64,000 nt of DNA. It comes from an uncultured cyanobacterium. GTDB taxonomy: Bacteria > Cyanobacteriota > Cyanobacteriia > Cyanobacteriales > Nostocaceae. The stretch lies in assembly GCA_963706595.1 (NCBI GenBank), contig OY970166.1, forward strand, positions 2,080,001 through 2,144,000, given 5' to 3'. Under the pieces are notes generated by a model that ran no database searches, was not told the DNA's origin, and was given only the letters and a program-made list of their open reading frames with translations. Numbering within the stretch: position 1 is the stretch's first letter; each line of letters starts with the position of its first letter. Below are positions 38,442-48,761 of this stretch, piece after piece. The position numbers and the translations under genes are program-made.

Positions 38442-38739
38442 CAAATTTTGCGCTCCTAAGTTCCATATACTGGTTACTTTAAACTTTAAATACTCAGGAA
38501 GGTATCTACAATAAGATATATGCAAATGTGAGTATATTAGAAAAGTGTAATTTTTCTGTTTAAAGCAGTAATACTACTTAAATTCACTAAAAATAATTCA
38601 GTGTTTGTTGGACAACTATTTAAAGTCCTTATCCTCACCTTGCGAAAATGCAATAAGTTCTGACTACCTCAAAGATGTAAAATTTTTGTTAAATTCATCA
38701 AGCATCTAGAATTTGTCCTCTTTTTATAAGGTTCTCAGC

Positions 38740-40944
38740 ATGACATCAAAAGCATCTTCCGCCCTACCTAATTTTTGTGAAGGGATTCAATATTTTGGTG
38801 AGGCGTTACCAAATTTTGAAAAATATGGTATAATGCCAGCTATAGAGTCTGGCAAGAAGGCGATCGCAGACCCTACAGATGCCGCAGCCGTCTATCAAAC
38901 TTTACTTGCTGCTGATGCCCTGCGCTACCTGACGCTGCAAGTTACAGCTAGTAAAGCATCTGGACACCCAGGCGGTTTTGCCAGTCAAGCAGAAGCTTAT
39001 GCAGCCCTAGTAATGCTGGGTCATAAGAATATTATCACCGAAGTGGGACACCACGCCCCTGGATTCTATAGTGCCATGTTTTTGGATCGTTCCTTGGAAG
39101 ACATGGGCATTTCTACAGTACAGCAATTGCGCGATCGCTTCCGCGAAAAGCACGGACTCTTAGGACACCTTTCCGGTTTCATTCCTGGCATTCTCGCACC
39201 GGCTGGACCACTAGGACAAGGACAACACTTTGCTATGTCCGCCGCCTTGCTGCATCAAGATAAATTATTCCCCTTTACTGTGGGTGATGGTGGATTGGGT
39301 GAGCCTTATATTGTCAGTGCGATCGCCCACTTTAACACAGCATATCCTAGCGTCACCAACTTCTTACCCGTCATGGTGTGGAATGGTTACAGCCAAGAAC
39401 ATCATAGTATGGTTTCCCTGAAAACCAACGCCGAAATGAAAGCCTACTGGCAAGGAAACGGTTTTGCGGAAGTCGTATTAGTGGATGCGAAAGACTTTGA
39501 CGACCAAAACCAACCAGGGGATTATGTAGATAGTACCGTCTTTTCCTTCGAGCAGCGCCTAGCCTTCACCAAAGCCGTACTTTTGGGAATAGATAAAGCC
39601 GCCCATTCTGCGATGAATGGACAGTTAACGGTATTCATCATTAAACAACTCAAAGGCGCAGGAGTTCACGCCCTGGGTTCCCAATCTCACAACCTTTATC
39701 CGAAAGATACCCTAGACGCGCCGCACATTATCAGTGCATTAAAAACCCGTGCTTTATCAGTAGAAGCTTGGGAATTAGTCCGCACAAATGCCGAACGCGC
39801 CGGAGGAGGTCCCGCAGCGAAAACAGTAGTTACAGAATTTGAATTACCCTTAGCAGATTTAGGACAATTACCATTAGAAGAATATACAGTAGGTGGAGAT
39901 CCCAAAGTTGCCACAACCGTAATGGGTAAATTAGTGGGATATGTGGGTAAAAAAGATAGTAACTTCTTAGTCACCAACGCCGACGGAAACGCCGCATCAG
40001 GAATTGGTAACATTAATGAAGCATTAAAAATCATTCACCCCACAACCGATGATTTATATAACCAAGCACCAAACGGACAAGTTTATGAACCATTGAGTGA
40101 AGATGCTTGTGCAGGTTTAGCGGCTGGTTTAGCCTTAATGGGTGCGAGAACATTATGGTGTTCTTATGAATCTTTTGCCATCAACGGTGTACCAATTTGG
40201 CAAACAGTCATCCAAGCAATGGCAGAATTGCGCCGTCAAACACCGTCTAGCATAACATTATTTACAGCCGGAGCATTAGAGCAAGGGCGCAACGGTTGGA
40301 CACACCAACGCCCGGAAATTGAAGCTTACTTTGCGTCACTGATGCGGAATGGAAATGTCTTCCCATTATTTCCCCCTGATGCTAACAGTATCCAAGGCTG
40401 TTATGACTGGGCTTTGCAAACAAAGAATAAGGGAATTGTGATTACAGCCAGTAAGTCACCGTTACCAATTCGCACAACTTTAGAACAAACTCGGCAAGGT
40501 TTAGAAGATGGTGCCATCTTATTACAAGAAGTCCCAGGAGATAAACAAGTTGTGTTTGCAGTCATTGGCGATATGACATTAATTCCTGTGTTTGAAGCGG
40601 CGGCTTTCTTAGAAACTGAAGGTATTGGAGTGAAGATTATTTCTATTATCAACCCTCGCCGTTTGTATCGTCCTAATGATACAGCTTGGGAAACTTGTTC
40701 AGAAGCCGATGGTGGTTTTATGGATGATGCCAAATTTGCCGAATTATTTGATGGAAGTGCCTTAATTGGTGTAACTGGTGGTGCTGCGGCGATGCTGGAA
40801 CCAATTATGTTACGCAGTAATTGCAAGCGTGATACTTTTGCCTGGAAGCGTGGGGAAACTACCGCCAGTGCGGGAGAGTTGATGGCGTTTAATGGCTTGA
40901 CTGCGGAAGCGTTGACTAAGCGTGCTATTGAGTTAGTGCATTAA
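38740..40944 (+). CDS. Phosphoketolase/transketolase-family TPP enzyme
   Basis: SGHPGG, TPP-binding GDG...N, EPLSE, SYESFA and RNGWTHQ motifs. Confidence 0.85.
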   Translation: MTSKASSALPNFCEGIQYFGEALPNFEKYGIMPAIESGKKAIADPTDAAAVYQTLLAADALRYLTLQVTASKASGHPGGFASQAEAYAALVMLGHKNIITEVGHHAPGFYSAMFLDRSLEDMGISTVQQLRDRFREKHGLLGHLSGFIPGILAPAGPLGQGQHFAMSAALLHQDKLFPFTVGDGGLGEPYIVSAIAHFNTAYPSVTNFLPVMVWNGYSQEHHSMVSLKTNAEMKAYWQGNGFAEVVLVDAKDFDDQNQPGDYVDSTVFSFEQRLAFTKAVLLGIDKAAHSAMNGQLTVFIIKQLKGAGVHALGSQSHNLYPKDTLDAPHIISALKTRALSVEAWELVRTNAERAGGGPAAKTVVTEFELPLADLGQLPLEEYTVGGDPKVATTVMGKLVGYVGKKDSNFLVTNADGNAASGIGNINEALKIIHPTTDDLYNQAPNGQVYEPLSEDACAGLAAGLALMGARTLWCSYESFAINGVPIWQTVIQAMAELRRQTPSSITLFTAGALEQGRNGWTHQRPEIEAYFASLMRNGNVFPLFPPDANSIQGCYDWALQTKNKGIVITASKSPLPIRTTLEQTRQGLEDGAILLQEVPGDKQVVFAVIGDMTLIPVFEAAAFLETEGIGVKIISIINPRRLYRPNDTAWETCSEADGGFMDDAKFAELFDGSALIGVTGGAAAMLEPIMLRSNCKRDTFAWKRGETTASAGELMAFNGLTAEALTKRAIELVH

Positions 40945-40968: not shown

Positions 40969-41017
40969 CGTAAATACACGCATAAAAGACTAAAAGCTTT
41001 AATTGCGTGTATTTACG
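40969..41017 (+). terminator. Long inverted repeat at the left boundary of the defence/TA island
   Basis: CGTAAATACACGCA and TGCGTGTATTTACG form perfect 14-bp arms with a loop of about 21 nt. Confidence 0.55.
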
Positions 41018-41092: not shown

Positions 41093-41806
41093 ATGAAGAA
41101 GATAATATTTGTTACTGGTGTTACAAGAATGAGAGAAGGATTTGTATGTGTGAGTGGGATAGACGAGCAAGGGAACTTTGTAAGACCACAGATTCACTAT
41201 CCTGAAAGACCAGGTATCAAGCAGGAATTTCTTTACGTTGAAGGACAAGCAGTAATAAAACCTCTCGCTAAAGTAGAACTAGAGTTCTTAAACCCTGTTG
41301 CTAAGTCAGCATTTCATACGGAAGATTGGGAAATTGATGGTGAAGTTCAACCCAGATTAGTAGGTATACCGAATGATAGTGAAAAATTAGTTATCCTTAA
41401 TCAAAAAACTGATTTTTCATTAGAACAGGCATTAGCTGAACAATCACGTTCAATTGTTATTGTCAAAAGCCGTGAAGTTCCTGAGATTGAAGTTAGAACA
41501 TGGGACGATCAGTTAAAATGTCACTTGTCATTTTATGATGAGTTTGGTGATTATCACCCACACTTACCAGTAACAGATGCAAACTGGTTAGCCGTTTGTA
41601 AGTTTCTTTGGCAAACAGATAGAACAAATTTACAACCAAGATTGACTAAAGCATTGCAAGGTAAAGATATATTTATTAGAATTGGTATAACAAGAGAGTG
41701 GAAAGGTCAAAAATGGCGGCAAATTTCAGGTGTTTTCTCAGTACCAGACTGGTTACAAGGAAAATGTTTTGCTGATTTAGATTATGATTTTAGCGACTAT
41801 GTATGA
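41093..41806 (+). CDS. Dual OB-fold (DuOB-like) domain protein
   Basis: N-terminal VTRMxxGxVCVSGID...FVRP, plus HTED and LPVTD motifs, recognised as resembling the dual-OB family. It sits next to DUF488 genes. Confidence 0.65.
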   Translation: MKKIIFVTGVTRMREGFVCVSGIDEQGNFVRPQIHYPERPGIKQEFLYVEGQAVIKPLAKVELEFLNPVAKSAFHTEDWEIDGEVQPRLVGIPNDSEKLVILNQKTDFSLEQALAEQSRSIVIVKSREVPEIEVRTWDDQLKCHLSFYDEFGDYHPHLPVTDANWLAVCKFLWQTDRTNLQPRLTKALQGKDIFIRIGITREWKGQKWRQISGVFSVPDWLQGKCFADLDYDFSDYV

Positions 41807-41818
41807 GAGAAATAAACC

Positions 41819-42367
41819 ATGAATAATGATAAAGACTTAATTAAAAATAACAATCAATTAACCTTATTTACTATTGGTCATTCCAACCACTGCATTAATA
41901 AATTTATAGAGCTTTTGAAAGCTAACAATGTTTTGTGTATTGTTGATGTGAGAAGTATTCCCTATAGTAAATACAACCAAAGTTTTACTAAAGAAAAACT
42001 ATCTTCAGAATTGCTCCAACATGGAATTGACTATATTTGGATGGGAAATACTTTGGGAGGACGTAGAGATGAATTAGAAAATTCTAGAGGATTTAGGCAA
42101 GATGATAAGTATGATTCAGACCAGGAATATAATACTGGAATTTTAGAACTTATGAGTGTAGCATTTTCCAAAAGAACTGCAATAATGTGTAGTGAAGAAG
42201 ATCCTCGTGACTGTCATCGGCACAAAATTATAGCTAATACTTTATTGCGAAACTTACCAAAAGATTATAAAATTAATAATGCAAAAATTACTCACATTCG
42301 AGCTAGTGGTAAACTAGAAGATGCTTCATTAGTTCAGATTTACTTTCAATTATCATTATTTGGCTAG
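41819..42367 (+). CDS. DUF488 family protein
   Basis: FTIGHSN, VDVRSIPYS, LGGR and MCSEEDPRDCHR motifs. Confidence 0.88.
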   Translation: MNNDKDLIKNNNQLTLFTIGHSNHCINKFIELLKANNVLCIVDVRSIPYSKYNQSFTKEKLSSELLQHGIDYIWMGNTLGGRRDELENSRGFRQDDKYDSDQEYNTGILELMSVAFSKRTAIMCSEEDPRDCHRHKIIANTLLRNLPKDYKINNAKITHIRASGKLEDASLVQIYFQLSLFG

Positions 42368-42376
42368 TTACACAAT

Positions 42377-42814
42377 ATGGGAATTATATACACTATCGGA
42401 TTTACCAAAAAATCGGCAAAAGATTTTTTTGAATTATTAAAAAAAGAAAAAATTGATTTAGTTGCTGATGTCCGTCTTAATAATACTGGTCAGTTAGCAG
42501 GGTTTACGAAAAAAAAAGATTTAGAGTATTTTCTTGACCTTGTAGAAATAAAATACGAGCATTGGAATAATTTTGCTCCGACTAAAGAGATGCGTGATAA
42601 ATATCATGCTACTTGGAACTGGGAAGAGTATGAATCTTCATATCGAAGTCTTCTCAAAGGTCGAAATGCTTTAGAAAAGTTAAATAAACCAATCTTAACT
42701 AATCAAAAAGTATGCTTATTGTGTTCTGAACATACACCTGAAAAATGTCATCGAAGAATAGCATCAGAGATGTTATCTAATATAGTAGGTGGTACAAAGA
42801 TAGTTCATCTTTAG
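42377..42814 (+). CDS. DUF488 family protein (second subtype)
   Basis: YTIGFTKK, DVRLNN, QLAGF, APT and LCSEHTPEKCHRR motifs. Confidence 0.88.
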   Translation: MGIIYTIGFTKKSAKDFFELLKKEKIDLVADVRLNNTGQLAGFTKKKDLEYFLDLVEIKYEHWNNFAPTKEMRDKYHATWNWEEYESSYRSLLKGRNALEKLNKPILTNQKVCLLCSEHTPEKCHRRIASEMLSNIVGGTKIVHL

Positions 42815-42833
42815 TTTTAGATTAGGTTAGCTA

Positions 42834-43020
42834 GTAGGGTGGGTTAGCGACAGCGTAACCCACCAAACCAATAACCTAAACTAAAATGGTGGGTTAGGTT
42901 GCAAACAAAAATCTTCACGTTGAACATATTATTCTCTGCGCCTAACCCACCCTACATCCTTTGTGTCTTTAGGTTGCAAAGGTCAATCATCATGTTTACC
43001 AGATTATCCGGTGCGCCTCA
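42834..43020. repeat. GTAG-type REP/REPIN composite repeat, copy 1
   Basis: GTAGGGTGGGTTAGCG..GCGTAACCCACC ... CCTAACCCACCCTAC, followed by AGGTTGCAAAGG...CCGGTGCGCCTCA. Confidence 0.85.
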
Positions 43021-43065
43021 GTTATAATAAAATAATACCGAAAATTTTACTCAATATAGGAGTTA

Positions 43066-43356
43066 ATGATGGTAACAAAAATTGAAGAAATATATAGAAA
43101 TATTGATACTTTACCAGAAGAAGCTCAAAGCTTACTACTTGATTTTATTCAGTTACTCAAAAAGCATTACCCAAAACCAGAAAATCAACACATAGAAAAT
43201 GAGAAAACTTTCTCATCTACCCAAAAACAAAAACCACATCCACTAGACACATTTATAGAAAAACATGGTGCTTGGGAAGATGAACGCACAGCAGAAGAAA
43301 TAGTCAAAGAAATTTATGATAGTCGGACTATTTCTAACTATGATATTAGCTTATGA
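43066..43356 (+). CDS. DUF2281-like antitoxin
   Basis: IDTLPEEAQSLLLDFIQLL motif. The stop overlaps the start of a PIN gene. Confidence 0.75.
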   Translation: MMVTKIEEIYRNIDTLPEEAQSLLLDFIQLLKKHYPKPENQHIENEKTFSSTQKQKPHPLDTFIEKHGAWEDERTAEEIVKEIYDSRTISNYDISL

Positions 43357-43754
43357 CTTATTTATTAGATACTGACACTTGCATTTACTGGATTAAAAAC
43401 ATTAATTCAGTTAGAGATAAAATTAAACAAATAGGATGGGAGCAAATTTGTATTTGCAACATTACCGTTGCGGAATTATATTTTGGTGCTTATAATTCTC
43501 AACGAGTCACAGAAAATTTAACTCGTGCAGAAAAATTCATTCAAGATATTGAAGTTATAAATTTAGATAATAATGCTGTAAAAAAGTTTGGAGAATTAAA
43601 AGCTGAACTTCGCAAAATAGGACAACCAGTTGCAGATTTTGATTTACTAATTGCTAGTGTTGCACTGACGAAAAGCTATATTTTAGTAACTAATAACACT
43701 CGTCATTATAGCCGAATTTCTAAGTTGAAATTAGAAAACTGGATTTCAGCTTAA
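43353..43754 (+). CDS. vapC: VapC PIN-domain toxin
   Basis: YLLDTD, TVAELYFG, FDLLIAS and LVTNN motifs. Confidence 0.92.
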   Translation: MTYLLDTDTCIYWIKNINSVRDKIKQIGWEQICICNITVAELYFGAYNSQRVTENLTRAEKFIQDIEVINLDNNAVKKFGELKAELRKIGQPVADFDLLIASVALTKSYILVTNNTRHYSRISKLKLENWISA

Positions 43755-43842
43755 AATATTTTTGTAGAAGTAGGTTAGAGCAAATAGCAAAAAATGACAA
43801 AATTTGCCATAGTATAAAAAAGTATATTCAGGAAATCACCTT

Positions 43843-44106
43843 ATGAAAAGTATGAATATTTCCTTACCTGATACTATGCGAACTTATATAGAAGAACAGG
43901 TAGCTCAAGGTGCTTACAGCAGCGTCAGTGAATATTTTCGGGAATTAGTGCGACAAGATCAAAAACAGAAAGCAAATGAACGTCTACAAACCATGCTCTT
44001 AGAAGGATTAAACTCTGGAAATGCAACAGAAATGACTGCTCAAGATTGGGAAGATATCCGTCAAACAGTCAGTGAAAGAATTAACAAACGTCAAAGCGCA
44101 AATTAG
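43843..44106 (+). CDS. ParD-like ribbon-helix-helix antitoxin (orphan)
   Basis: MNISLP, GAYSSVSEYFRELVR and LLEGLNSG motifs. No ParE follows. Confidence 0.85.
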   Translation: MKSMNISLPDTMRTYIEEQVAQGAYSSVSEYFRELVRQDQKQKANERLQTMLLEGLNSGNATEMTAQDWEDIRQTVSERINKRQSAN

Positions 44107-44149
44107 CAGTGATGTATTAAATTTAAAAAAGACCTCCAAAAAAAACGCT

Positions 44150-44368
44150 ATGAAATTTCAAGTAATTTTCACTTATGATTCAGAATATCTAGGTTACGTT
44201 GCTGAAGTACCAGAACTTCCTGGTTGTGTCAGTCAAGGTAAAACCTTAGATGAAGCAATTGAAAATATCAAAGATGCAATAAAAGGCTATCTTCACGTAT
44301 TAGAAAAACATGGTAAACCGTATGTACCTAAAGAGTCTCAATCTTTTGTAGGAGAAGTATTAGTATAA
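44150..44368 (+). CDS. hicB: HicB family antitoxin (short form)
   Basis: YVAEVPELPGCVSQGKTLDEAIENIKDAI. Confidence 0.9.
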   Translation: MKFQVIFTYDSEYLGYVAEVPELPGCVSQGKTLDEAIENIKDAIKGYLHVLEKHGKPYVPKESQSFVGEVLV

Positions 44369-44587
44369 ATGGGACGTTTATCCAATATTTCCGGTAAACA
44401 AACAATCAAAATTTTTGAAAAATTTGGCTATGCTGTAGATCATCAAACCGGAAGTCATATCATACTTTGGCACGAATCAAAACCCATTTTATCAGTTCCC
44501 AATCATAAAGAACTAGCACCAGGGTTACTCAGAAGTTTAATTAGACAAGCAGAAATTACAGTAGATGAATTTTTAGGAAATAAGTAA
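44369..44587 (+). CDS. hicA: HicA family toxin
   Basis: QTGSH, VPNHKEL and GLLRSLIRQA motifs. Confidence 0.9.
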   Translation: MGRLSNISGKQTIKIFEKFGYAVDHQTGSHIILWHESKPILSVPNHKELAPGLLRSLIRQAEITVDEFLGNK

Positions 44588-44595
44588 TACCTTTA

Positions 44596-44777
44596 GTGGG
44601 TAATCGCGTAACCCACCAAACCAATAACCTAAACTAAAATGGTGGGTTAGGTTGCAAACAAAAATCTTCACGTTGAACATACTATCTCTGCGCCTAACCC
44701 ACCCTAAATCCTTTGTTTCTTTAGGTTGCAAAGGTGAATGATCATGTTTACCAGATTATCCGGTGCGCCTCACCCAC
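44596..44777. repeat. REP/REPIN composite repeat, copy 2
   Basis: Near-identical to 42839-43020. Confidence 0.88.
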
Positions 44778-44860
44778 TTAGTTATGTTAATTACCTAGAG
44801 GATAAATAGGGTGTAATATAAGTTAAAACTTCAACAGCTTACCACACCCCAAATGTAATC

Positions 44861-45412
44861 ATGACCACAGATGCAGAATATCAAGGAAGAATTACCAGCT
44901 ATGACTGGGATGATTTAATGAGATTATGGTCAGAAATTAAAGCAAAAAATACTTCCAATTTTTGGGATGCAGATAAAGCATTAGAATATTTAGTTTTACG
45001 CGCATTTCAACTCGATGGTGCTGAAGTAGCTTGGCCTGATAGTGTAAAAATTAAAGGAAAAATAGTAGAACAAATTGACGGCGTGGTATACACAGACAGC
45101 CTAGCTTGCCTGATAGAATGTAAAGATACCACAGAAGAGGTTAATATTGAACCAATAGCAAAGCTACGAAATCAACTACTACGAAGACCAGCCACAGCTA
45201 TTGGTAGCGTGTTTAGTCGCACTGGATTTACAGAAGCCACCGTAACATTAACTGGGTTTGTTGCTCCTCAAACTATTCTATTGTGGGGAGGAGAAGAAAT
45301 TGAATATTCACTACAACATAAATTTATATGTAAATCCCTAGTCAAGAAATATCGTGTTTGTGTTCATAAAGGTATCCCTAACTACGACATTATAACGGAG
45401 AGTTTTTCATGA
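44861..45412 (+). CDS. Mrr-like PD-(D/E)xK restriction endonuclease domain protein
   Basis: LEYLV, EQIDG, LIECKD and GFTEA motifs. Confidence 0.78.
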   Translation: MTTDAEYQGRITSYDWDDLMRLWSEIKAKNTSNFWDADKALEYLVLRAFQLDGAEVAWPDSVKIKGKIVEQIDGVVYTDSLACLIECKDTTEEVNIEPIAKLRNQLLRRPATAIGSVFSRTGFTEATVTLTGFVAPQTILLWGGEEIEYSLQHKFICKSLVKKYRVCVHKGIPNYDIITESFS

Positions 45413-45963
45413 CACTAGCATATATGATTGCAGAAAGTGAAACAAATATAGAGATTTTACAGAAATTACTGCCAAAAAATCTGATTCAAGATATCCAATT
45501 TATAGCAGGTGAAAGTTCTTACAGAGCGCGTTCTTTAGCTACTTCACTTCTAGCGACTCGAAAAATACCAGTTGCTCTTGTCATCGATGCAGATACAGAT
45601 CACGAATCTCAAGTATTTGAAAAGCAAGATTTAATTAATTATGTATTAAATCAAGCATCTTCTGGTACTCCATTTCAATTATTTTTGGCTGTTCCTCAAT
45701 TAGAAATTTTATTGTTAGAAGATAAATCATTAATTGAGAAAATGGCACAAAGGAAATTTAATGATTTAGAATGGCAATTTGCCCAAAGTAAACCTAAAAA
45801 ATTTTTAGAGACAGTCTTAGGAAAAGAACAGTCAATAAACGAGAGAATATTTAGTAATATCAATGAGCAAGAAATTAAGATATTACGACAACACCCATTA
45901 ATACAACAAATGATAGTTTTCTTATCATCTCTGACCTCAGACGTGATGATAACACAGCGATGA
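45409..45963 (+). CDS. Hypothetical protein, possibly with a TOPRIM-like fold, coupled to the REase gene
   Basis: ATGA overlap with the upstream gene. It has an N-terminal strand with E (IAESE), LVIDAD and PQLE. Confidence 0.6.
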   Translation: MTLAYMIAESETNIEILQKLLPKNLIQDIQFIAGESSYRARSLATSLLATRKIPVALVIDADTDHESQVFEKQDLINYVLNQASSGTPFQLFLAVPQLEILLLEDKSLIEKMAQRKFNDLEWQFAQSKPKKFLETVLGKEQSINERIFSNINEQEIKILRQHPLIQQMIVFLSSLTSDVMITQR

Positions 45964-45964
45964 C

Positions 45965-46027
45965 GGGTTAGCGATCGCGTAACCCACCAAAGCAATAACC
46001 CAAGTGTAAATACTGGCTGAGGTTGCA
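45965..46027. repeat. REP repeat, copy 3 (truncated)
   Basis: GGGTTAGCGATCGCGTAACCCACC...GTGTAAATACTGGCTGAGGTTGCA. Confidence 0.85.
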
Positions 46028-46071
46028 CGTCGCCAAATTGGTAGCGAAGCCGCACGTAAATTGATAAAAAC

Positions 46072-46332
46072 CTATTTTTTATACACCTCTCGCCGATGCT
46101 TACATTGAATGAGTAAAATAATTAATTCTTGATCTTGAATTTCATAACGTAAGCGATAGTCTCCAATTCTAATTCGATATTCATTTTCATAACCTTTCAG
46201 TTTTACTACTCCATTAGGACGAGGTTCGTCTGCAAGCTGGCAAATCTTTTCATATACACGCTCTTTGAGATTATTAGGAAGATTATCTAATTGTTTTTGA
46301 ATAGATTTAGTTATAATAATTTGGTACGTCAT
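46072..46332 (-). CDS. relE: RelE/ParE family toxin
   Basis: PRPNGVVKLKG, YRIRIGDYRLRY and HRREVY motifs. Confidence 0.92.
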   Translation of the reverse strand: MTYQIIITKSIQKQLDNLPNNLKERVYEKICQLADEPRPNGVVKLKGYENEYRIRIGDYRLRYEIQDQELIILLIQCKHRREVYKK

Positions 46333-46337
46333 AGTAT

Positions 46338-46580
46338 CTATTTACGCTGATTGCTTAGATACTGCTCAAAAGTAGTATATTCACCATTGGCGTATTCATC
46401 ACGTACTAACTGAATCTCTCTTGCAGTTGCTTCATCTTCTTCCCAACTTTCTTCTTCAGCTTCAGCAATAGCTTGATCAAGAATCTCCCAAAGTAGCTTT
46501 TTTTCTGATAGATTTAGCCCACTTAAGGAGTTGATGAGTAACTCCATAGGAATGAATAAATTTAGTCCTGCTTGTGACAT
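46338..46580 (-). CDS. Putative antitoxin for RelE
   Basis: Acidic 80-aa ORF directly upstream of relE, with a GEYTTFEQY tail. Confidence 0.75.
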   Translation of the reverse strand: MSQAGLNLFIPMELLINSLSGLNLSEKKLLWEILDQAIAEAEEESWEEDEATAREIQLVRDEYANGEYTTFEQYLSNQRK

Positions 46581-46676
46581 TGCTTTGATTATCCTAATGT
46601 CTATCTTTATATTTTATCAGATAACTATTAGTTGATAGCACAAAATCGTGTTTTTGAATAGATTAAGTTATAGTAT

Positions 46677-46788
46677 GTAGGCTGAGTTAGCGATCGCATA
46701 ACCCACCAAACCAGTAACCCAAGTGTAAATACTGGCTGAGGTTGCAAAGGTGAATCATCATATTTACCAGATTATCCGGTGCGCCTCA
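46677..46788. repeat. REP repeat, copy 4
   Basis: GTAGGCTGAGTTAGCGATCGCATAACCCACC...GGCTGAGGTTGCAAAGG...CCGGTGCGCCTCA. Confidence 0.85.
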
Positions 46789-46833
46789 GTTATAATAAAA
46801 TAATACCGAAAATTTTACTCAACGTAGGAGTTA

Positions 46834-47103
46834 ATGATGGTAATAAAAATTGAAGAAATATATAGAGATATTGATACTTTACCAGAAGAAGCTCAAACCT
46901 TACTACTTGATTTTATTCAGTTACTCAAAAAGCGTTACCCACAAACAGAATTAGAAAATAATACTTCTATTTCTCCTCTCCAAAGCCTAGAATCTTTATC
47001 TGAACTTGACCCCTGGACACAAAGCCTAATAGGTGTAATTCCCTTAGAATCACAAAATCCAGAAGAAATTTATGTTAATTACCTAGAGGAGAAATATAGT
47101 TGA
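46834..47103 (+). CDS. DUF2281-like antitoxin (chimeric paralog of the 43066 gene)
   Basis: The first 36 aa are nearly identical to the 43066 ORF. The C-terminus (PWTQSLIGVI...YLEEKYS) is unrelated. Confidence 0.78.
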   Translation: MMVIKIEEIYRDIDTLPEEAQTLLLDFIQLLKKRYPQTELENNTSISPLQSLESLSELDPWTQSLIGVIPLESQNPEEIYVNYLEEKYS

Positions 47104-47516
47104 AACGGGTATTATTTGACAGCGATGTTTTGCTGGATATTTTAGCAGAGCGTCAACCGTTTGTTGTCGCCTCAGCACAAGCATTAAATACAGTCATCAA
47201 AAAACAGGTACAAGGCTTTGTTTCAGGACACGCTGTTACTAATATTTTCTATATTTTACGTCGCCAAATCGGTAGCGAAGCAGCACGTAAATTAATAGAA
47301 ACCTTATTGCAACACATTCAAATTGCCAGCGTTACAGATGAAGTAATTCACCAAGCTTTGCAAAGTCCAATTAAAGATTTTGAAGATGCGGTGACAAGTG
47401 CAGCAGCAATGGCTGCAAGTTTAGAAATAATTGTGACACGAAATACATCCGATTTTGTAGCTTCTTCAGTCCCAGCAGTGTTACCAGAAGAGTTCTTAAA
47501 AATTGTTTCTGATTAA
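47100..47516 (+). CDS. PIN-domain toxin
   Basis: VLFDSDVLLD, DFEDAV and IVTRN motifs. Confidence 0.88.
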   Translation: MKRVLFDSDVLLDILAERQPFVVASAQALNTVIKKQVQGFVSGHAVTNIFYILRRQIGSEAARKLIETLLQHIQIASVTDEVIHQALQSPIKDFEDAVTSAAAMAASLEIIVTRNTSDFVASSVPAVLPEEFLKIVSD

Positions 47517-47536
47517 GTTAGTATAAATAAAGATAG

Positions 47537-47765
47537 GACTACACAAGTAAACCCCTTTCACATGGCAAAACCATACAAATTATGATTCTCGAACCAAGCG
47601 AATCTACTCAAAAAATAGATTCTGAAGAATCCAAAATACAGCAATTTTTAGCACGAGTTAATAACTACTCCTTCCCACTCCCCCCAGACTACAAATTCAA
47701 TCGAGAAAAAATCTATGACAGATAAAATATTTCTCGATACCAATCTCTGGATTTATCTCTATGCT
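47537..47765 (+). pseudogene. Remnant TA pair: 5'-truncated antitoxin plus the first 18 codons of a PIN toxin
   Basis: ...LPPDYKFNREKIYDR* (stop at 47725) overlaps the ATG at 47715 of MTDKIFLDTNLWIYLYAK, which then breaks off. Confidence 0.7.
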
Positions 47766-47983
47766 AAAAAATTTTTATTGCTAGACAAATCATTTGCTGC
47801 TTCCACACAACCAATGTATTCTTGAGCCATAGTTAAAGCCGAAATACCTGATTTTTGGGGTTGATTTGATAACCCTTGTTTGTGGATTTTCGCTAGTAAA
47901 AATTCTACAAAATCCAGCGCCTCTTGTTGCCTATCAGGAGGTAATATCCTTACCTTGTCTATAATAATTTCTTCAATACTCAT
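47759..47983 (-). CDS. DUF2281-like antitoxin (orphan, probably 3'-truncated)
   Basis: LPPDRQQEALDFVEFLL and GCVEAANDLSSNK motifs. No toxin follows. Confidence 0.72.
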   Translation of the reverse strand: MSIEEIIIDKVRILPPDRQQEALDFVEFLLAKIHKQGLSNQPQKSGISALTMAQEYIGCVEAANDLSSNKNFLA

Positions 47984-48050
47984 TTTATTTGTCCTCTGGG
48001 AGAAATAAATATAGTTTAAATTTTATCACATAACACTATAATTAGCTAAT

Positions 48051-48098
48051 AGTGTAAATAGTGGCTGAGGTTGCAAAGGACAATCATCATGTTTACCA
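48051..48098. repeat. REP repeat, copy 5 (internal fragment)
   Basis: AGTGTAAATAGTGGCTGAGGTTGCAAAGGACAATCATCATGTTTACCA. Confidence 0.8.
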
Positions 48099-48148
48099 AA
48101 AAATATCAAAATAATATATACTACTGATAGTATGACTGTGGGTAGGAT

Positions 48149-48370
48149 ATGGCTAAAATCTCAATTTCATTGCCAGATGAACTACTAAATTACATTGACC
48201 AAAAAGTTGAAAACCGTAGTGCATTGATTGAAAATCTCTTGAAACAATGGCAAGAAAAACAACAAGATGAAGCACTAGCGGCCGCTTGCGCCTTGGTTGA
48301 TGAATTAGAATTAGGTTGGGAAAGTGAATGGCAAAATATAGCGATTACCGAATGGGAAGCATCTGGATAG
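48149..48370 (+). CDS. CopG/RHH antitoxin
   Basis: KISISLPDELLNYID and NRSALIE motifs. Confidence 0.82.
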   Translation: MAKISISLPDELLNYIDQKVENRSALIENLLKQWQEKQQDEALAAACALVDELELGWESEWQNIAITEWEASG

Positions 48371-48705
48371 TAACATTTGATTTCTCTGTAGGTACAGAAA
48401 TTCAAAAAACTCGTCCAGCACTCATAGTTTCTGGGACTTTGTTTAACAACCAACGCAGCAAAGTCACAGTTTTACCTTTTACTTCCGCCAAACCTAATAA
48501 TCCTCGTATTTCACCTGCGGTAGTTGCAGTACCTTCATCATCACAAAATGGACTTTCTGTAGACAGTCTTTTGATATGCGTTGAACCGATGACATTTGAC
48601 AAAATTCGTTTAACTCAACAACTAGGTGAATTAGAAACAGAATTACTAGAAAAAACCCAAAATATTCTGCGTAGATACCTGAGTTTAAGCAACTATCAAT
48701 CGTAA
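48328..48705 (+). CDS. mazF: PemK/MazF family toxin
   Basis: VGTEIQKTRPALIVS, VLPFTS and NGL..DS motifs. Confidence 0.9.
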   Translation: MAKYSDYRMGSIWIVTFDFSVGTEIQKTRPALIVSGTLFNNQRSKVTVLPFTSAKPNNPRISPAVVAVPSSSQNGLSVDSLLICVEPMTFDKIRLTQQLGELETELLEKTQNILRRYLSLSNYQS

Positions 48706-48708
48706 TTT

Positions 48709-48761
48709 GTAGGTTGGGTTACACAATTTGCAACCCAACTCTCAACGAAAGTTCCTCAGCC
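48709..48761. repeat. Degenerate GTAG REP, copy 6, at the right boundary of the island
   Basis: GTAGGTTGGGTT...AACCCAAC...CCTCAGCC. Confidence 0.65.

Follow-up and report, generated by a model that had tools for sequence, protein, structure and literature searches.

Burroughs and Aravind are reported to have predicted in 2023 that DuOB and DUF488 proteins process DNA ends in conflict systems. The locus in this report shares with those systems the Pfam DuOB and DUF488 families and, as a possible common feature, a PTP-like fold with RapZ-C among the structure matches, but it is without a DarT, DarG or SLOG partner. The same three components make up PDC-M45, a candidate system in PADLOC in which A is a DuOB protein and B and C are DUF488 proteins. 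The PDC systems were predicted from genes that lie inside BREX, DISARM or type I RM systems, and one embedded case suffices for listing (Payne et al., bioRxiv 10.1101/2024.01.29.577857). Our literature search found no test of PDC-M45 and no paper naming it, and a search of titles found no functional test of a DUF488 module; an earlier reading of this DNA, made from the sequence only, had likewise known of no experimental characterisation of the three-gene form.

The window, i.e., the whole 64,000-nucleotide stretch of cyanobacterial DNA that was analysed, carries ORF1 (DuOB), ORF2 and ORF3 (both DUF488) on the same strand, with gaps of 12 bp between ORF1 and ORF2 and 9 bp between ORF2 and ORF3 (Table 1). 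In the PADLOC run, the B and C models of PDC-M45 matched the adjacent ORF2 and ORF3, and the PDC-M45A models gave no match to ORF1 at E <= 0.1 nor at 0.01. Canonical DuOB proteins do match PDC-M45A, and one ORF1 homologue, P0013, is marginal (E 0.0096). Because the A models miss the divergent ORF1, we treat the window trio as a distinct subtype. It differs from PDC-M45 also in its gene order, DuOB-B-C, which is found at 3/28 cyanobacterial loci, and its ORF2 lacks the C-terminal helices and ends at the putative clamp motif described below. The trio is a divergent variant of the catalogued candidate module PDC-M45.

Table 1. Features of the trio and its surroundings, in positions of the window.
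Feature	Position	Strand	Basis
Phosphoketolase-family gene; fixed left anchor of a variable slot, context rather than part of the system	38713..40944	+	Pfam; congener comparison
Perfect 14-bp inverted repeat, 3' side of the phosphoketolase gene	40969..41017 (arms 40969-40982 / 41004-41017)		z -5.1
ORF1, dual-OB protein (DuOB), 237 aa; predicted ssDNA binder	41093..41806	+	PF22557; AF2 model; Foldseek
ORF2, TIGHS-type DUF488, PDC-M45B-like, 182 aa	41819..42367	+	PF04343; PDC-M45B, 127 bits
ORF2 predicted active-site motif CSEEDPRDCHR	42188..42220	+	Sequence; CxE-x5-CHR in 116/116 ORF2-type sequences
QLSLF, predicted beta-sliding-clamp binding motif, ORF2 residues 177-181	42347..42361	+	Motif conservation; consensus in PMC11139829
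ORF3, TIGFT-type DUF488, PDC-M45C-like, without clamp motif, 145 aa	42377..42814	+	PF04343, PF22751; PDC-M45C, 160 bits; AF2 model
ORF3 predicted active-site motif CSEHTPEKCHR	42722..42754	+	Sequence; alignment; AF2 model
REP-like double hairpin starting the shuffled toxin-antitoxin array	42815..42960 (repeat 42834-42955)		z -7.5

The trio has a GC content of 32.6%, compared to 41.3% for the source genome (5.57 Mb, 94% complete), and falls in the lowest 1.7% of 1722-bp genome windows; the description of three tightly packed, co-oriented and AT-rich genes is confirmed. Many cyanobacterial genomes are rich in HIP1 sites, and this one has 4341. The trio was said to contain none, and it does contain none (1.34 expected), but the absence carries no weight, since 30% of 20,000 random windows of the same length also have none, and we reject it as a sign of foreign origin. 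ORF2 and ORF3 are the only two DUF488 genes of the genome. An NCBIfam search gave no match. The promoter scan found 9 promoter-like sites, compared to 9.6 in shuffles, and the terminator scan found none. Contigs from one of four RNA runs examined (22 listed) cover parts of the three genes, although such contigs cannot show transcription.

ORF1 matches the DuOB family PF22557 with E 8.4e-9 and 36.2 bits (curated cut-off 27), and in the Atlas its neighbours, at 0.96-0.97, are clusters of DuOB proteins. The AlphaFold2 (AF2) model, calculated with a 32-sequence alignment, has a pLDDT of 90.4 and consists of two domains, OB1 at residues ~1-100 and OB2 at ~101-219. Foldseek matched this model to LEF-3 (E 1.8e-5), Teb1-AB, p202 HIN and RPA70. 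The two halves of the predicted model also align separately to single OB folds, residues 1-102 to the TEBP alpha OB (Z 8.7, rmsd 2.3, 86 aligned) and residues 101-217 to Teb1 OB-C (Z 6.5, rmsd 3.4, 105 aligned), so that the dual OB fold proposed for the first protein is supported. ORF1 is predicted from its model to be an ssDNA binder with tandem OB folds, like RPA70, Teb1, POT1/TEBP and baculovirus LEF-3; identity to these proteins is, however, ~10% or less with TM-scores <=0.42, and nothing marks ORF1 as a general SSB. The SSB that the genome separately encodes ends in DDIPF. The subtype of ORF1 has a conserved acidic-aromatic tail resembling YDFxDxV (YDFSDYV here; window 41783-41803), in which Y231, F233 and D235 are invariant in the 32 aligned sequences and which is absent from canonical DuOB proteins. 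We do not accept it as an SSB-like tail, as it is without the terminal PF of the genome's SSB; among canonical DuOB proteins, 1/28 ends in PF.

ORF2 matches PF04343 with E 6e-21, and ORF3 matches PF04343 with E 3.4e-25 and PF22751 with E 1.1e-11. Both paralogs keep an intact cysteine motif and, as first read, differ in subtype: CSEEDPRDCHR is accompanied by TIGHS in ORF2, and CSEHTPEKCHR by TIGFTKK and QLAGF in ORF3. Seven residues of ORF2 (D43, R45, C124, E126, C132, H133 and R134) are invariant in 61 aligned sequences. The pattern CxE-x5-CHR, general among ORF2-type proteins (Table 1), is also present in 148/148 ORF3-type sequences, and an Asp-x-Arg is likewise invariant in the alignments of both. 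From these motifs, ORF2 and ORF3 are predicted to be cysteine-motif enzymes.

A sequence search found no solved structure related to the DUF488 proteins. The AF2 model of ORF3 has a pLDDT of 93.3 and places C116 at the end of a strand, with H125-R126 beginning the next helix and a motif loop four residues longer than the PTP loop. Foldseek gave no match to this model at E <= 0.001. A wider structure search listed tetrapyrrole-methylase-type domains (Z 8.4 and 7.9), PTP and dual-specificity phosphatases (DSPs; Z 7.7 and 7.5) and RapZ-C (Z 5.6); in the PTP/DSP entry 2dxp, 112 residues align (Z 7.7, rmsd 3.1). Many PTP/DSP rows at Z 5.5-7.7 are tied with methyltransferases, which also occupy the first two VIA rows. 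The assignment of these proteins to the Cys-based rhodanese/phosphatase fold thus finds support for ORF3 at middling Z, with methyltransferase folds ranking level, and the modelled structure fits that assignment to a middling degree. The C-x5-R spacing of PTPs is present in ORF2 and in 19/19 members of its subtype but in only 22/116 ORF2-type sequences; ORF3 lacks it, with Glu at +6 and the family-invariant Arg at +10.

Rhodanese-type folds also carry out sulfur transfer. This activity, the invariance of two Cys, Glu and His in the DUF488s and the longer motif loop of the ORF3 model would all suit a site, formed by C, E, C and H, that is structural or transfers thiols, in proteins that have no role as phosphoesterases. 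We consider such a metal or redox function improbable: the Arg after the His and the DVR are invariant too, as would be expected for anion binding.

The C-terminus of ORF2 reads QLSLFG. A review of beta-clamp partners gives QL(S/D)LF as the consensus clamp-binding motif, which occurs in natural partners with a length of five or six residues and in tails or loops (PMC11139829). ORF2 shares this consensus, its terminal or loop placement and its two lengths with the clients Pol II, Pol IV, Pol III alpha and Hda, and differs from them in being a cysteine protein, predicted to have the PTP fold, from a mobile accessory trio; "DUF" occurs nowhere in the main text of that review. A single match is close to chance level (5 QL[SD]LF in the source proteome, compared to 4.0 expected). 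With patterns that relax position 2, clamp forms end 19/19 of the closest ORF2 homologues (QxxLF in 13 and six-residue QxxLx[FLI] in 6, the six being not independent, since all four that the tree includes group together). The same terminal forms end 0/120 ORF3 homologues, 0/32 ORF1 homologues and 15/3501 genome ORFs. The canonical cyanobacterial counterparts of ORF2, separated from the window subtype by a long branch (support 100/100), have QLSLF in 24/28 cases and QxxLF in 26/28, as a conserved island within a linker of variable length and sequence. QxxLF lies within the last 45 residues of 47/88 ORF2 search matches.

Conservation is looser elsewhere. Among 15 canonical ORF2-type proteins from outside the cyanobacteria, Qxx[LI]F is found in 3 and most keep only xxLF at that place, a remnant that could be a packing element, and three further copies, from plasmids or viruses, carry QLSID, KDMF and QLSIF. 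The metal or redox explanation includes such a packing role for the tail of ORF2 itself; against this, the window subtype keeps the tail at its extreme end after loss of the downstream helix. From the motif, we predict that ORF2 uses its terminal QLSLF to dock on the beta clamp. In the source genome, the C-terminal part of DnaE carries QGNLF and MutS has no convincing motif. The same genome encodes a 1112-aa protein without a Pfam match (L139; G000:C1:3333169-3336507) that has QLSLF at residue 13, in an acidic N-terminus, and is a possible further clamp client.

DUF488 genes are widespread: one search gave 5711 relatives of ORF3, and 113 plasmid records have matches. PF22557 matches are present in at least 49/401 genomes of the phylum, a lower bound because the genome search with PF22557 misses the copy in the source genome itself. 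From these, 28/49 cyanobacterial DuOB loci were fetched, chosen for spread and contig room, and both DUF488 genes are adjacent and co-oriented at all 28, in the order B-C-DuOB at 25 and DuOB-B-C at 3, so the trio is indeed conserved elsewhere. The window subtype is rarer (0/10 congeners; 3/151 genomes of the family at full strength), with relatives in Latescibacterota, Verrucomicrobiota, Desulfobacula and metagenomes. The subtype likewise sits after the phosphoketolase gene at L039 and in Scytonema (L004), with 77% and 74% nucleotide identity. An internal stop interrupts the DuOB gene of L004, and a stub of 36 residues is left in L008. The trio is dispensable, being absent from 10/10 congeners and broken in L004 and L008. 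In the ORF2 tree, the window protein, three named cyanobacterial proteins and one more protein form one group (99/95) among the subtype members. Given this group, the same-site copies and the broken ones, the subtype probably reached the site long ago and was often lost or replaced. Vertical and lateral origin at this site were compared through differences at fourfold sites (0.38-0.67 for the trio and 0.52-0.63 for the phosphoketolase gene), which overlap in range and are near saturation.

The trio was also described as bounded by repeats. Both repeats exist, but the left one is not specific to the trio: a hairpin aligning with it follows the phosphoketolase gene in 5/10 same-genus genomes that lack the trio, so it is no cassette boundary, and we reject it as the end of a mobile element. 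The right repeat, presumably a GTAG-type REP, is a genome-wide element whose arm has 18 exact copies. Toxin-antitoxin (TA) genes identified by Pfam follow, which places the trio at the head of a TA island, as proposed.

Nearly all of 11 same-genus genomes have their own order of the TA modules after the phosphoketolase gene (window 42815-48720; L011-L020). The modules are never inverted (406/406 alignments >=250 nt on the same strand); many are set apart by REP-like repeats and shared leaders, and strain-specific genes come first. It looks like an array shuffled by recombination between direct repeats. An integron was rejected, as no TIGR02249 integrase exceeded the cut-off and the break points are scattered, many inside repeats; none of 6 Y1 transposase matches lies within the window. 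Within the array (window 44861-45963), a gene with a weak match to Mrr-like nucleases (E 4.9e-4) is coupled to one of 184 aa that matches no family; this partner recurs in five congener arrays and the pair in two. There are also an orphan ParD-like antitoxin without a toxin (43843-44106) and the remnant that a deletion has left of an antitoxin-PIN pair, intact in congeners (47515-47765). The trio slot itself is occupied in congeners by PARIS AriAB (L014:10300-12003, - strand; 644 bits), a methyltransferase and 2OG-Fe(II) oxygenase pair (L019:744-2524), PD-(D/E)XK and GIY-YIG genes (first genes of L013/L017) or an AIG1-type GTPase (L015:790-1719).

Most of the 28 cyanobacterial loci sit between housekeeping genes. 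Among the 100 neighbour proteins scanned, defence-type genes flank 2/28, and TA or Uma2-type genes 11/28, so the suggested defence context is borne out at few cyanobacterial loci, although copies in prophages and in a CBASS island do exist. Phage packaging genes adjoin or flank copies at L025 and L029, a trio copy lies beside CBASS on an Agrobacterium plasmid, and others are beside GmrSD (L042, L083) or between pieces of a type IIG RM system (L092). On viral contig L032, ORF2 and ORF3 types lie between DnaB and a family B polymerase; a search of phage records with a canonical ORF2-type query found no match. L132 encodes a RecQ-DuOB fusion. Lone ORF3-type genes are found beside uvrA/uvrB and formaldehyde-detoxification genes on 2/3 plasmids opened, of the 113: a TIGFT-type gene beside uvrA on an IncHI2 plasmid (L144:1652-5566) and one beside uvrB on a Comamonas plasmid (L145:4495-9423). 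These two contexts may share one origin, being 62% identical. Many of the 113 plasmid matches score identically and may represent one uvr/formaldehyde element. SOS control in cyanobacteria was not supported: an exact LexA box was present in 0/32 upstream regions and a one-mismatch box in 1/32, compared to 2.1 in shuffles, a weak test because the recA control itself shows no better than a one-mismatch site.

These neighbourhoods bear on an anti-phage role, in which ORF1 would detect phage ssDNA or replication intermediates. The DUF488 proteins, brought to clamp-loaded DNA, would then act by damaging the DNA of the phage or by stalling the replisome of the host in abortive infection. The copies beside phage packaging genes, CBASS, GmrSD and type IIG RM argue for it, as do the contents of the slot in congeners (PARIS in one, nuclease genes in two others), the patchy occurrence in the phylum and the PADLOC listing. 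We regard this role as unlikely, though a serious contender, since defence-type neighbours are so few in cyanobacteria, a PDC listing is a prediction that one embedded case can support, lone ORF3-type genes accompany uvr genes, and a Pfam search found no nuclease, NADase or membrane effector within the trio. The literature search found no report joining a clamp-binding motif with an anti-phage function.

A stand-alone antidote that strips ADP-ribose or phosphoribose left on ssDNA by DarT-type toxins has a substitution in its favour: at 5/10 viral loci read, the ORF2 type is replaced by an mSLOG-DUF4326 protein (L025, L027, L028, L030 and L031; DuOB is upstream in 4/5, and terminase-like genes are next to 3). 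DUF4326 has been proposed to process phosphates on ADP-ribose (PMC9503650). The distribution of DarT makes this antidote a long shot. DarT matches are found in 48/401 genomes but not in the source genome; 10/49 DuOB genomes have DarT, which lies on a different contig from the trio in 8 of them and no closer than 1 Mb in the other 2. No DarT or macrodomain was detected among 100 neighbour proteins scanned (96 of the 125 listed plus 4 added; the 29 left out were short, overlapping, duplicate or already scanned). The statement that the locus has no DarT or DarG is supported.

The clamp motif, the RecQ fusions and the uvrA/uvrB neighbours together lead us to favour clamp-tethered processing of blocked, adducted or damaged ssDNA at replication forks and gaps, a reading that we hold at an even chance. 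The three products, as a conserved unit, would act together on ssDNA beside a loaded sliding clamp. ORF2 would dock on the beta clamp through its tail and ORF1 would hold the exposed strand with its two OB folds, while the cysteine sites of ORF2 and ORF3 would clear a blocking phosphate, phospho-sugar or adduct, perhaps through a covalent cysteine intermediate by analogy with PTP-fold enzymes, so that synthesis or repair resumes. Clamp binding, ssDNA binding, complex formation, the intermediate and the substrate are all inferred. Such damage might be genotoxic in origin or arise from conflicts with phages and toxins, which would account for a distribution that is patchy and mobile; a role in repair need not exclude one in defence. 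The clamp-binding consensus favours the DNA-processing half of the sequence-only reading, which had inferred an anti-phage or end-processing system. More tentatively, and with doubt outweighing confidence, we suggest a mobile, replisome-coupled pathway spread by plasmids and prophages, in which an RPA-like ssDNA binder and a clamp-docked cysteine pair reverse DNA adducts or blocked ends (e.g., aldehyde or phospho-sugar).

The DUF488 proteins are a widespread group for which neither a solved relative nor a functional test was found, and the module is under-counted, since the PADLOC A models miss the window subtype. The conserved putative clamp tail points to where in the cell the substrate should be sought, and it could separate repair from defence as readings of the trio. 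Should the trio restrict phage as well, it would amount to a defence system that reaches its target by way of the sliding clamp of the host.
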